DNA from: Opitutia bacterium
GTDB lineage: Bacteria; Verrucomicrobiota; Verrucomicrobiia; Opitutales; Coraliomargaritaceae
Assembly: GCA_029252625.1 (NCBI GenBank)
Contig: JAQXBA010000021.1
Coordinates: 25,067 to 89,066 of the forward strand
Length of the DNA stretch: 64,000 nt
Direction of reading: 5' to 3'
Made by a program: the position numbers and the translations under genes. The stretch's first letter is position 1. Every line of letters starts with the position of its first letter. A model generated the notes under the pieces. It was not told the origin of the DNA, ran no database searches, and saw nothing but the letters and a program-made list of their open reading frames with translations. Below, one piece after another: positions 16,585 to 25,021 of the stretch.

Positions 16585-16863
16585 TTATGCTTCGTCGCCA
16601 ACCTTCGGTGCTCTTTCGAGAACCTTAGTGACGCGCCAGCGCTTGAGCTTGCTAAGTGGACGTGTTTCCATGATCTCAACCTTGTCACCAAGAGAGCAGT
16701 CATTAGTTTCGTCATGCACATGAACCACTGTCTTACGCTTAATTTCCTTACGGTAAAGCGGATGTGGAATCTTATAGAGGTAAGTGACTTTGATTGTCTT
16801 GTCACCGGAACGACTAGTTACGGTTCCAATCAGGGACTTACGGGAATTGCGTGTTGCTTCCAT
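16585..16863 (-). CDS. rpsQ: 30S ribosomal protein S17
   Basis: HPLYRKEIKRKTVVHVHDE...GDKVEIMETRPLSKLKRW. Confidence 0.98.
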   Translation of the reverse strand: MEATRNSRKSLIGTVTSRSGDKTIKVTYLYKIPHPLYRKEIKRKTVVHVHDETNDCSLGDKVEIMETRPLSKLKRWRVTKVLERAPKVGDEA

Positions 16864-16884
16864 AGTATATGTCGTCTGTTAAGA

Positions 16885-17091
16885 TTAAGCAGAGGCCGCA
16901 GCCAACTTCTTCTCTTTAAGAATGGTTTCGAGGCGCGCGATTTCGCGACGCAGTTGAGTGAATTCGTGCGGGCGTTCAACCTGACCAGTCTGCTTGCGCA
17001 GACGAAGGTTAACGTGTGCATCGTGCGTGTCGCGTAGCTTCTTTTCGATTTCGACTTCGGACATTTCGCGGATATCTTTTGTGGTGCTCAT
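16885..17091 (-). CDS. rpmC: 50S ribosomal protein L29
   Basis: LRLRKQTGQVERPHEFTQLRREIARLETI, in the expected operon position. Confidence 0.95.
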   Translation of the reverse strand: MSTTKDIREMSEVEIEKKLRDTHDAHVNLRLRKQTGQVERPHEFTQLRREIARLETILKEKKLAAASA

Positions 17092-17119
17092 ATTAAATGA
17101 TTCCTGGAGTAATATTTTG

Positions 17120-17539
17120 TTACGCGGAGTCTTCGCGAGTAACGAAGCGGCAGTGGAACGGAAGCTTGGTGTCAGCTAGGCGAAGTGCTTCTTGAGCAGC
17201 AGTCTGGGTGCAGCCTGCGATTTCGAAAAGCATGGTACCGGGGCGGATCACAGCGACCCACTTCTCAACAGAACCCTTACCTTTACCCATACGAGTTTCA
17301 GCTGGCTTTTTTGTTACCGGTTTATGTGGAAAAACGCGGATCCAAACTTTACCCTTACGCTTGAGGCTACGTGTCATAGCAACACGAGCAGCTTCAATTT
17401 GCTGGGAAGTCATACGACCGCGAGTGAGTGATTGGATACCGAACTCGCCGAAAGCGAGGGAATTACACGACTGGGCTGTTCCGTAGATGCGGCCAGTGTG
17501 AACCTTACGGTATTTTGTGCGTGATGGAAGATATGCCAT
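17120..17539 (-). CDS. rplP: 50S ribosomal protein L16
   Basis: [10 protein letters not shown]...[27 protein letters not shown]. Confidence 0.98.
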
Positions 17540-17585
17540 GGTTCGCTCAGTTTAATAGGTTAAAAATTGTCTAGGTGACGTGTGA

Positions 17586-18218
17586 TTACGCTTCCTCTTC
17601 TTCAGAAAGACAGATCCAGCATTTCACGCCGATGATACCATAGACTGTGCTTGCTTCGCTGAAGCCGTAGTTAATGTTGGCGCGAAGTGTCTGAAGCGGC
17701 ACCTTGCCTTGATGCTGACGCTCTGTGCGAGCGATATCAGCCCCACCGAGACGACCACCACATTGGATTCGGATACCTTCCGCACCCATTGCCATTGTAG
17801 TCTGAACAGCGCGCTTCATCGCACGGCGGAAAGCGATACGGCGCTCAAGTTGAAGTGCTACGTTCTCAGCAACAAGCTGCGCAGAGAGGTCTGGACGCTT
17901 CACTTCTTGAATGTCGAGCATGATCTCCTGCTTGACGACCTTGTTGAGGCCTTCCTTCAGTTTGTCGAGCTCTGCACCTTTACGGCCGATGACAACACCA
18001 GGACGTGAAGTGAAGATCTTCACACGGATACGGCCAGAGGCGCGCTCAATAAAGATACGAGGCACGGATGCATAACGCAGCTTGCCCGTAAGGAATTTAC
18101 GGATTTCGTAGTCTTCTTTAATGAAGCCTGGAAAATCTTGCTTAGATGCATACCAGCGTGAGTCCCAGTCACGGGTTACTGCAAGGCGGAAGCCGGTTGG
18201 ATGAACTTTCTGTCCCAT
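17586..18218 (-). CDS. rpsC: 30S ribosomal protein S3
   Basis: MGQKVHPTGFRL...RPGVVIGRKG...GRLGGADIAR...GKVPLQTLRANI. Confidence 0.98.
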   Translation of the reverse strand: MGQKVHPTGFRLAVTRDWDSRWYASKQDFPGFIKEDYEIRKFLTGKLRYASVPRIFIERASGRIRVKIFTSRPGVVIGRKGAELDKLKEGLNKVVKQEIMLDIQEVKRPDLSAQLVAENVALQLERRIAFRRAMKRAVQTTMAMGAEGIRIQCGGRLGGADIARTERQHQGKVPLQTLRANINYGFSEASTVYGIIGVKCWICLSEEEEA

Positions 18219-18241: not shown

Positions 18242-18577
18242 TTAGGCTTCGTCGGTAAGGACGATACGAATGTTGCTGGTAGCCTTTTTGTAAGGATGCG
18301 CAGAGCCGCGAGCGGCAGGGCGGAAACGCTTGAACGTAGGACCTTGCTCAACGATTGCAGACTCAACAGTGAGTGCATCCGATGATAGGTTGTTATTGTT
18401 TTCCGCGTTGGCGATTGCCGACTGAAGCGTTTTGCTTACGAGGCGAGCCGACTTGCGCGGGATGAAGCGCAAAATTTCGACTGCTTCGGCAGCATTACGG
18501 CCTTGGATGGCACGAGTGATATCGCGTACCTTGCGGGGCGACATACGGGCGTATTTGGTATAGGCTTGGACCTGCAT
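18242..18577 (-). CDS. rplV: 50S ribosomal protein L22
   Basis: RMSPRKVR...LQSAIANAENN...GPTFKRFRPAARG. Confidence 0.98.
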   Translation of the reverse strand: MQVQAYTKYARMSPRKVRDITRAIQGRNAAEAVEILRFIPRKSARLVSKTLQSAIANAENNNNLSSDALTVESAIVEQGPTFKRFRPAARGSAHPYKKATSNIRIVLTDEA

Positions 18578-18582
18578 GAGAT

Positions 18583-18957
18583 TCAGCTGTTTTGAAGTGT
18601 TTTTACGCGGGCAATGTCTCCCGCTTGAATGGTGGAGTCGTCGACCAACTCTAGGATAAGTCCTGCTGAGCGGTCGCTTCGTGATTCGATAATAATCAAT
18701 TCGCCGATCGATTGTGTACCGCGATTAATGCGGCATTTCATTCCAAGGCGCATACCTTGCTCGAGTCCGCCGTCAAGAATGACAACATCTGCGGCAAAGC
18801 TAGGGACCACTGTCGAGACGGTGGCTGCGTTTGGGCTATAGATCGACTCTTTGACGAAAGCGGGAACTTCCGCTCGCACAACACACCCTGCAAGCAGCGC
18901 TCCGAGAAGGAACAGGCTAGCGAGCTTTGAGCGGCGTTGTGTGGACAGAAGGTGCAT
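18583..18957 (-). CDS. Hypothetical exported protein or lipoprotein (FlgT C-terminal-like beta domain) embedded in the S10 operon
   Basis: 124 aa that fills the rpsS-rplV gap exactly (20 nt and 5 nt spacers). It has a basic n-region, a hydrophobic h-region and an LAGC lipobox. The C-terminal VVILDGGLEQG...IGELIIIES pattern resembles FlgT_C-type domains. Confidence 0.7.
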   Translation of the reverse strand: MHLLSTQRRSKLASLFLLGALLAGCVVRAEVPAFVKESIYSPNAATVSTVVPSFAADVVILDGGLEQGMRLGMKCRINRGTQSIGELIIIESRSDRSAGLILELVDDSTIQAGDIARVKTLQNS

Positions 18958-18977
18958 GACGTAAATAAGAGGTTTAC

Positions 18978-19241
18978 TTATTTGCTGGCTTGGTGGCCCT
19001 TGAACGTGCGAGTTGGCGAGAACTCACCGAGCTTGTGGCCAACCATGTTCTCAGTCACATAGACGGGCAGGAAGCTGCGACCGTTATGAACGTTGAGGTT
19101 GAGACCTACGAAGTCAGGAGTGATCGTCGAACGACGAGACCAAGTTTGGATCGGCTTGCGATCGTTGTTGGCCTGAGCCGCACTTACCTTTTTGGCAAGA
19201 TGTGGATCAACAAAGAAACCTTTTTTAATGGAACGAGACAT
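18978..19241 (-). CDS. rpsS: 30S ribosomal protein S19
   Basis: [12 protein letters not shown]...TWSRRSTI...[15 protein letters not shown]. Confidence 0.98.
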
Positions 19242-21712: not shown

Positions 21713-21813
21713 AATACTAATAGGCAGGTGAAGCGGATGCTTCGTTTAAGAGACCTGCGTTAGAAAGTTTAAAAAAATGTGATTTATCGCCTCAGATGGG
21801 AAGCGAGCGACGG

Positions 21814-21842
21814 AAAAAAGAGTGAAATTCCAGCCTCGTCAA
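21814..21842 (-). promoter_or_regulatory. Candidate promoter for the rplC...rplQ block
   Basis: Minus strand reads TTGACG followed after 16-17 nt by CTTTTT/TTTTTT, with an AT-rich tract upstream. The -35 hexamer is the same as at the tRNA-Thr promoter; the -10 match is weak. Confidence 0.4.
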
Positions 21843-22374
21843 CCCCCTATTTCGAAAAAATACATTATTTTTCAAAACGATGCACCTTTGCCTAGTTCCT
21901 ACAAAACAATAGAACCAACACTGCTCGGTACATTGGAACAAAGAACGCAGCACTTTAAGGGGCATTCACATGCCTGATTGCAATAGACTTAAGAAAGTAA
22001 AGCTACAGTGGCAGTGCGGACACTCACCCACTTTCGCCAAGAAAATTCACATCATTGGCAGTCAACAGCAAAGAGGAGTTCATTAAGGCACAAGGGACGC
22101 TACGTTATGTGATTTAGAAATGCCGACATAAACACTTTGAGTCCCGTTAATAACTCAGGAATGATGAATCCCAAGGATGTCGATAATTGTAACTCTCCTA
22201 CACCCTTTGATCAGACTAGCTCGGCGCAGGATATTACAAAACATACTCCTTCGAAAATGCTCCCAGGATGGAGTAACAGATTCGGCGTTACACCTTTAGT
22301 AGTGAAGTATTAAAACAATATGAAACACAGGGAAACGATTCAAGGCGAACGACCACACAATCTAGATCACTTAC

Positions 22375-22409
22375 AAAAAAGCCCGCAACTCTTACGAGAG
22401 GCGGGCTTT
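22375..22409 (-). terminator. Intrinsic terminator after rpsJ
   Basis: GCCCGC stem paired with GCGGGC, followed by a 6-U run on the minus strand, about 40 nt after the rpsJ stop. Confidence 0.8.
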
Positions 22410-22451
22410 AAAAAATTCTGATTACTGCCTTCTGGCTACTACCGGCTGATC

Positions 22452-22760
22452 CTAAACGTTGATCGAGATATCAACACCCGCTGGGAGGTTGAGCTTCTTG
22501 AGCTCGTCCACTGTGGCAGCTGTTGGCTCGACGATGTCGATCAGGCGCTTGTGCGTGCGGACTTCGAATTGGTCCATGGATTTTTTATTAACGTGCGGAG
22601 AACGGTTGACTGTGAGCTTTCCGATGTGAGTCGGAAGAGGCACAGGGCCGGAAACGCGTGCGCCTGAGCGCTTTGCTGTTTCAACGATGTCTGTTGCAGA
22701 CTGGTCGATAACGCGATAATCGAAGCCTTTGAGGCGGATACGGATACGTGGTGAGCTCAT
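22452..22760 (-). CDS. rpsJ: 30S ribosomal protein S10
   Basis: [14 protein letters not shown]...GPVPLPT...[24 protein letters not shown]. Confidence 0.99.

Positions 22761-22873: not shown

Positions 22874-25021
<2,148 letters not shown>

Follow-up and report, generated by a model that had tools for sequence, protein, structure and literature searches.

A predicted exported beta-barrel protein encoded between rpsS and rplV in Opitutales and its longer relatives across Verrucomicrobiota

Introduction

The gene order rpsJ-rplC-rplD-rplW-rplB-rpsS-rplV-rpsC is among the most conserved in biology. Ribosomal-protein operons also carry passengers, and in E. coli and B. subtilis these include secY, adk, map and infA in the spc operon and rpoA in the alpha operon. 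The gene described here, ORF X, resembles such passengers, which are non-ribosomal, have no signals of their own and lie within a conserved ribosomal-protein cluster; SecY, moreover, serves the envelope and secretion. However, those passengers are near-universal housekeeping genes of the spc and alpha operons, whereas X breaks into the S10 operon proper, is lineage-restricted, can be done without in many lineages and encodes a protein predicted to be exported. X is a passenger of a kind already known, from a protein family that has no name; an exported non-ribosomal gene fixed lineage-wide in the S10 gene order is unusual and, as far as we found, undescribed.

At the level of fold, the protein can be compared with several known systems. 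FlgT of Vibrio (3w1e; 8z5n_0 of the LPHT ring) is a 350-aa protein of the flagellar H-ring with three domains. Its FlgT_C domain shares with X the small barrel and an hhhxxGxxxGhxxGM motif between strands 2 and 3, but X is a single barrel, joined to a coiled coil in the long form of the family, it is encoded in a ribosomal operon, and the family is present in Akkermansia, which is not known to be motile. MreC (PF04085, TIGR00219/PRK13922; 2j5u, 7eft) resembles the long form in its layout, in which a membrane or signal segment at the N-terminus is followed by a coiled coil and a periplasmic barrel, and in a G..GV..GM motif, but it has two barrels where X has one, and X has no mreBCD context. 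The barrels that form the crown of the F1/V1-ATPases (N-terminal domains of the alpha, beta, A and B subunits) share the six-stranded small-barrel topology of X and pack side by side as rings. Unlike X, the crown is cytoplasmic and part of an enzyme of 450-600 aa; identity is 10-19% with no sequence similarity, so that this likeness is one of fold only.

The PVC signature protein of the CT421.2 family is small, lineage-restricted and without known function, and has been proposed as a marker for PVC groups (Gupta et al. 2012, PMC3444138). As described in that paper, CT421.2 is another protein, of about 53 to more than 80 aa, and the identification of X with it was rejected.

The original prediction stated that no function was known for this gene. 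Literature searches on the S10 operon in Verrucomicrobia and on rpsS and rplV in Akkermansia yielded nothing relevant. Here we present the link between the short form of the family found in Opitutales and a long form found elsewhere in the phylum, the bimodal rpsS-rplV spacing and the losses behind it, statistics on the lipobox, dN/dS by segment, the exclusion of MreC, and a paralog linked to pgi. We consider it probable that X is a Sec-exported periplasmic barrel of about 10 kDa with six strands, a truncated ortholog that is co-transcribed with ribosomal proteins and serves the envelope as a module that binds proteins or oligomerises.

Results

Locus and spacers

The window is the whole stretch of DNA that was analysed, 64,000 nucleotides long. 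Its features around X are as follows.

18583..18957, minus strand: ORF X (P0001), 124 aa, predicted exported small beta-barrel protein (ORF list, homologs, AlphaFold2, dN/dS)
18978..19241, minus strand: rpsS (uS19), 87 aa, upstream of X (ORF list; tblastn identity to congener rpsS 85-100%)
18242..18577, minus strand: rplV (uL22), 111 aa, downstream of X (ORF list)
18958..18977, minus strand: rpsS-X spacer, 20 nt, with no Shine-Dalgarno-like motif, promoter or terminator (sequence and consensus scan)
18578..18582, minus strand: X-rplV spacer, 5 nt (sequence)

Along the minus strand the gene order is fusA, rpsJ, rplC, rplD, rplW, rplB, rpsS, X, rplV, rpsC, rplP, rpmC, rpsQ, rplN and onward. A 124-aa frame had been predicted 20 nt after rpsS and 5 nt before rplV, and the coordinates are exactly so. 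Among 19 congeners the rpsS-X spacer measures 19-27 nt, and the X-rplV spacer is 5 nt in all 19, a distance short enough that translation of the two genes may be coupled.

The original prediction had also seen no promoter or terminator here, and this agrees with a scan for promoter-like and terminator-like sites, based on a consensus not tuned to this phylum, which found none in either junction. One promoter-like match (9/12) lies within X, and the region holds six such sites in total against 7.7 expected by chance. Over the whole 9-kb region, promoter-like and terminator-like sites are no commoner than in shuffled sequence, and Rfam gave 0 matches between positions 18000 and 23000 of the window.

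Further upstream, fusA (22874..25021, minus strand) is directly followed by rpsJ (22452..22760, minus strand) with no tuf between them, the usual order elsewhere being fusA-tuf-rpsJ. The gap between rpsJ and rplC extends over 739 nt (21713..22451, minus strand) with no ORF of at least 60 aa, and Rfam recognises no known leader in it. A strong terminator-like hairpin, GCCCGC...GCGGGC followed by TTTTTT, lies directly after rpsJ at about 22375..22406 (minus strand), which suggests that rpsJ may be transcribed here separately from rplC and the remaining genes of the S10 operon.

Export signal and lipobox

The N-terminus of X reads MHLLSTQRRSKLASLFLLGALLAGC/VVRA/EV in one rendering and MHLLSTQRRSKLASLFLLGALLAGCVVRAEV in a second. 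It contains both a lipobox and a possible type-I cleavage site, as had been predicted.

18871..18957, minus strand: signal peptide, codons 1-29, with an n-region containing R8, R9 and K11, an h-region L12-G24 and a c-region VRA/E
18883..18894, minus strand: LAGC lipobox, codons 22-25, the Cys codon 25 being 18883..18885 (direct reading)

The N-terminus has what Sec export and signal peptidase I call for, namely positive charges in the n-region, an h-region that is hydrophobic, and small residues at both -3 and -1, with the site at V27-R28-A29/E30; the AlphaFold2 model has a helix at residues 3-24. The prediction of an N-terminal export signal is borne out across the family, since an AxA-like site, found with a crude regular expression, occurs in 119 of 119 close homologs and in 135 of 143 representatives, and the long forms have typical signal peptides. 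From these features the family state is read as Sec export with type-I cleavage at VRA/E, and the mature protein would then have about 95 aa.

It is possible, if less likely than not, that in this species X is instead a membrane-anchored lipoprotein, processed by Lgt and LspA at LAGC, with its barrel tethered to the inner or outer membrane. The canonical L-A-G-C at residues 22-25 ends a 13-residue h-region that follows R8, R9 and K11, and Cys25 is found not only in the window (L001) but also in its three closest sampled relatives (L002, L003 and L005) and independently in L017. However, only 6 of the 67 homologs that are exactly 124 aa long have Cys at residue 25, while 55 have Ser, 5 Gly and 1 Asn, and the commonest motif is VAGSVVRAE; Cys is also missing from more distant short and long forms, and the conserved feature is the VRA/E site four residues downstream. 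With another residue in 61 of the 67 same-length homologs, lipoprotein nature is not supported as a trait of the family, and lipidation cannot be needed for the function of the family.

Within the genus, a Cys completing the lipobox has appeared at this same signal-peptide position in two or more separate lineages, which hints at a recurrent switching between soluble and lipid-anchored forms.

The long form across Verrucomicrobiota

In a search of 301 genomes of the class, the short-form profile matched 227, and outside the order it aligned with 70-100 residues at the C-terminus of longer open frames, about 215-570 aa in length. Among 23 loci from different families of other Verrucomicrobiae orders, 22 have this gene between rpsS and rplV; there the ORF has 213-300 aa and the rpsS-rplV gap is 650-960 nt. 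The spacers of several long forms are only 0-2 nt. The copy of Akkermansia muciniphila (WP_297404337.1, 236 aa) occupies the same slot, is annotated as 'hypothetical protein' and falls in a cluster of 427 sequences at 90% identity. According to one paper, the ribosomal-protein genes of Akkermansia lie around Amuc_0296-0304; the supplement of an Akkermansia outer-membrane proteome has no entries for L22 or S19.

The long form consists of a signal peptide, a helical coiled-coil stalk of about 150 residues that carries a conserved SLAxANxEAExFK...ALG motif, and a C-terminal barrel with the motif LxLVVxNLGxxxGVKxGMPFxVxRxxxxIGxxRVVDVRExxSGAxI...GDR. Alignment of the short-form and long-form profiles with hhalign gave a probability of 98.8% and an E-value of 6.3e-17 over 79 columns, and the long-form profile matches X itself at 3.7e-15. 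When this profile was taken to the phylum, it matched 165 of 251 genomes. Eighteen loci from other classes were inspected: in 12 the gene lies between rpsS and rplV, in a further 4 it is directly upstream of rplV with rpsS beyond the fetched piece, and the remaining 2 are paralogs. One of the S10-located proteins from these classes comes from a record named 'Kiritimatiellia bacterium'. The S10-type copy was never found outside this slot in any genome sampled, across several classes.

In the AlphaFold2 model, X has no coiled-coil stalk and only a 25-residue linker precedes the barrel; the stalk is missing from all sampled Opitutales forms. In a maximum-likelihood tree of the barrel domains, which is unrooted, has only 97 columns and so does not show the direction of change, a branch with support 100/99 divides the Opitutales short forms, without exception, from the other sequences. 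Because every other sampled order and class has the long form in the slot, the simplest reading is that the coiled coil was lost in the ancestor of Opitutales, and X appears to be the truncated Opitutales ortholog of a Verrucomicrobiota protein of 170-300 aa with signal peptide, coiled coil and the same barrel.

Conservation and loss of the slot within Opitutales

Homologs of X were found in 28 of 41 relatives examined, with identities down to 27%, and all 28 lie between rpsS and rplV. We then surveyed the order in 151 genomes of 41 families with the X profile, rpsS and rplV as probes; both flanking genes were on the same contig in 147 genomes. The distance between rpsS and rplV, taken from match ends and thus approximate by a few codons, is bimodal across the order.

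X found by HMM: 68 genomes, rpsS-rplV distance 360-616 nt
Diverged signal-peptide ORFs of 110 and 109 aa (L078, L079): 2 genomes, distances 367 and 385 nt
No X: 77 genomes, rpsS-rplV distance 19-197 nt

The slot is thus occupied in 70 of the 147 genomes with both flanks and 77 are without X. Two intermediate gaps, of 179 and 122 nt (L080, L081), contain no ORF. By family, 14 always have X, 22 never have it and 5 are mixed, one of these only through a diverged copy. Among the families that lack X there are very small genomes, of 0.8-1.3 Mb, as well as large ones, of 4-8 Mb. X has been lost many times in Opitutales, and therefore it is not universally essential.

A second subfamily, away from ribosomal genes, begins with a transmembrane helix, which is followed by a long coiled coil and a barrel that bears the motif NPEWNFVVLNLG...SIADI. 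In the tree these paralogs form a separate clade with support 98/99. Opitutales paralogs from several families lie between pgi and an rsmI-like gene (L076, L077, L122-L126), the neighbours being named by reading translated sequences. The genome of the window has its own paralog of 277 aa just downstream of pgi, outside the window (C119, about 16791-17621), and so this organism keeps a stalked relative while its S10 copy is reduced to the barrel. Neither the pgi-paralog-rsmI arrangement nor the tandem copies gave a functional clue. Those tandem pairs of paralog coiled-coil and barrel genes were seen in two other Verrucomicrobiae genomes (L097 1..1737, L121 662..2253).

The codon adaptation of X is 0.62, which puts it near the 71st percentile of the crude set of ORFs used as reference, compared with 0.63 for fusA, 0.70-0.83 for ribosomal-protein genes and a median of 0.58. 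Since this is below the ribosomal-protein genes, output of the X protein may be well below their level.

These data bear on the meaning of the position. A purely historical explanation is a serious rival, although we regard it as rather doubtful: the gene of an exported protein would have landed early between rpsS and rplV and stayed there for want of its own promoter, so that the link to the ribosome is incidental. It fits well with the clean and repeated losses, which left gaps of 19-146 nt and flanking genes that do not need X, with a paralog subfamily that works from an unrelated locus beside pgi, and with a codon adaptation that is only intermediate. It fits poorly with an S10-type copy that, in the genomes sampled from several classes of the phylum, is nowhere but in this slot, and with spacers as tight as the 5 nt before rplV in all 19 congeners and the 0-2 nt of several long forms. 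At the other extreme, it is unlikely that the slot itself is functional, with X being a Verrucomicrobiota-specific periplasmic scaffold dosed by ribosome output through co-transcription and coupling to uL22, and/or a protein whose co-translational export tethers the polycistronic S10 mRNA to the membrane, and with this mRNA also uS19, uL22 and uS3 synthesis. If it were true, the growth of the envelope would be tied to translation capacity from within the S10 operon itself.

Fold of the barrel

We modelled the short form with AlphaFold2 using 15 diverse short forms as input. The model has a mean pLDDT of 85, with block means of 89-97 over residues 41-120, and comprises the N-terminal helix and six strands.

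18598..18837, minus strand: beta-barrel core, codons 41-120, with strands at 44-51, 58-62, 74-79, 82-92, 96-104 and 115-118

The model of the Akkermansia long form shows helices at 14-75, 81-120 and 126-142 and a barrel with a pLDDT of 95-97. A Foldseek search of the PDB with the short form found nothing at E<1e-3; its top matches are all small barrels, namely the V/F-ATPase crown, the C-terminal domain of alanine racemase, FlgT, MreC and Pbp11. FlgT came at ranks 3 and 6 (8z5n_0, E 4.9e-3; 3w1e, E 9.8e-3). Over the searches with both forms, the ATPase crown gave the most numerous matches (for example 6r0w_F, E 2.3e-3; 3fks_A, rmsd 2.9 over 80 columns), and matches to MreC ranged from E 9e-4 to 8e-3. 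With the long form, the best matches were FlgT (1.5e-4 and 2.5e-4), the alpha subunit of ATP synthase and MreC (9.4e-4).

The original prediction had suggested a small FlgT_C-like barrel. The small barrel is supported by the model, as is a weak likeness to FlgT (E 5e-3 to 1e-2 for the short form), with 12-18% identity in the structural matches and similar scores for the ATPase and MreC barrels. The cut-off of the FlgT_C family model was not reached: Pfam FlgT_C (PF16538) gives sub-threshold matches in 12 of 20 long forms, the best at E 5e-4 and one listed score of 20.6 bits against a gathering score of 27 bits, and no match at E<=1 in X and 9 other short forms. UniRef names the Coraliomargarita sinensis ortholog (P0068) after FlgT_C, yet P0068 has no PF16538 match at E<=1 either. 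'FlgT_C-like barrel' is therefore a fair description of the fold class as modelled, while membership in the family is not established.

MreC was also considered and rejected. Pfam MreC matches 2 of 20 long forms below threshold, and NCBIfam MreC models match 1-5 of 20 depending on the model. X has no MreC HMM match, the genome of the window has a genuine MreC elsewhere (C132:67077-67535, 101 bits), and in Akkermansia the long form occurs in the absence of any MreC.

It is very improbable that X stays in the cytoplasm, its N-terminal helix being an anchor or buried and its barrel a lineage-specific factor associated with the ribosome and acting on it or on translation, as its place within the S10 operon and the appearance in the Foldseek lists of the archaeal barrel protein Pbp11 (7anu) and an IF2 model (3j4j) might suggest. 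These fold matches are all at E>1e-3, the long forms carry a coiled coil of periplasmic type, and positive charges, a hydrophobic segment and then an AxA site, in the short and most long forms, make up a standard N-in/C-out export signal.

Coding status and selection

X has 346 homologs in a collection of 5.8 billion proteins, and a protein identical to it is present on 22 contigs. A profile search of representatives at 50% identity found 879 members at E<=1e-3, 244 of them at E<=1e-10, and the best 150 of the 879 are all small, at 74-209 aa. By source name, the close relatives are marine Opitutales: Puniceicoccaceae, Lentimonas, 'Opitutaceae bacterium BACL24', Thalassobacterium and Coraliomargarita. 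Database copies with a source name are all called 'hypothetical protein' except the one UniRef entry named after FlgT_C. Pfam and NCBIfam gave no match to X even at E=10, and a PDB sequence search with the X profile gave 0 matches at E<=10.

No in-frame stop was found in X across the 28 relatives. Between 19 congeners the dN/dS of the whole gene (Nei-Gojobori) is 0.165, far from the value of about 1 expected for an ORF that is not conserved, and it differs by segment.

Signal peptide of X: 0.36
Linker of X: 0.17
Barrel of X: 0.12
rpsS, rplV, rpsC and rplB: 0.03-0.07

X is thus a genuine protein-coding gene, conserved as the original prediction required, and it is under clear purifying selection that is weaker than that on the ribosomal proteins. 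That X is an accidental reading frame in a widened intergenic spacer has the small size and lack of family annotation in its favour and nothing more; this idea has practically no chance of being right and is refuted by this conservation, that is, by the 346 homologs, the 879 representatives, the intact frame, the dN/dS of 0.165 and the confident predicted fold.

In one Opitutales genus the HMM match of X crosses a single in-frame TAA (G148:C24:7633-7902, G127:C20:260302-260625, G106:C10:106699-106965), where an N-terminal overrun of the alignment or a shortened gene are both possible.

Discussion

As X has no visible promoter or terminator and is separated from its neighbours by very short spacers, we infer that it is most likely transcribed within the rplC...rpsQ ribosomal-protein transcript. 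Its supply would then follow ribosome synthesis, and translation of rplV may be coupled to it. The idea of a dose at the ribosomal level is tempered by the codon adaptation of 0.62 and by frequent loss. Moreover, repeated loss, in at least 22 Opitutales families, weakens the case for an obligatory role in coupling.

The product would be exported via Sec, with the mature barrel located in the periplasm. By analogy with the FlgT rings, the MreC-PBP2 complexes and the ATPase crown, the barrel most probably serves there to bind proteins or to oligomerise within an envelope structure, and the helical stalk of the long form would be a spacer or a dimerisation rod. The barrel survived the truncation and is under the strongest constraint, which points to it as the functional core of the family.

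Akkermansia is a medically studied gut bacterium for which a genetic system has reportedly been published, so that the family can be tested there directly. The short form of Opitutales represents a natural experiment, in which the stalk was deleted, the barrel and the slot were kept, and whole families later lost the gene. Opitutales genomes with and without X thus provide a contrast set for genes that co-vary with it.
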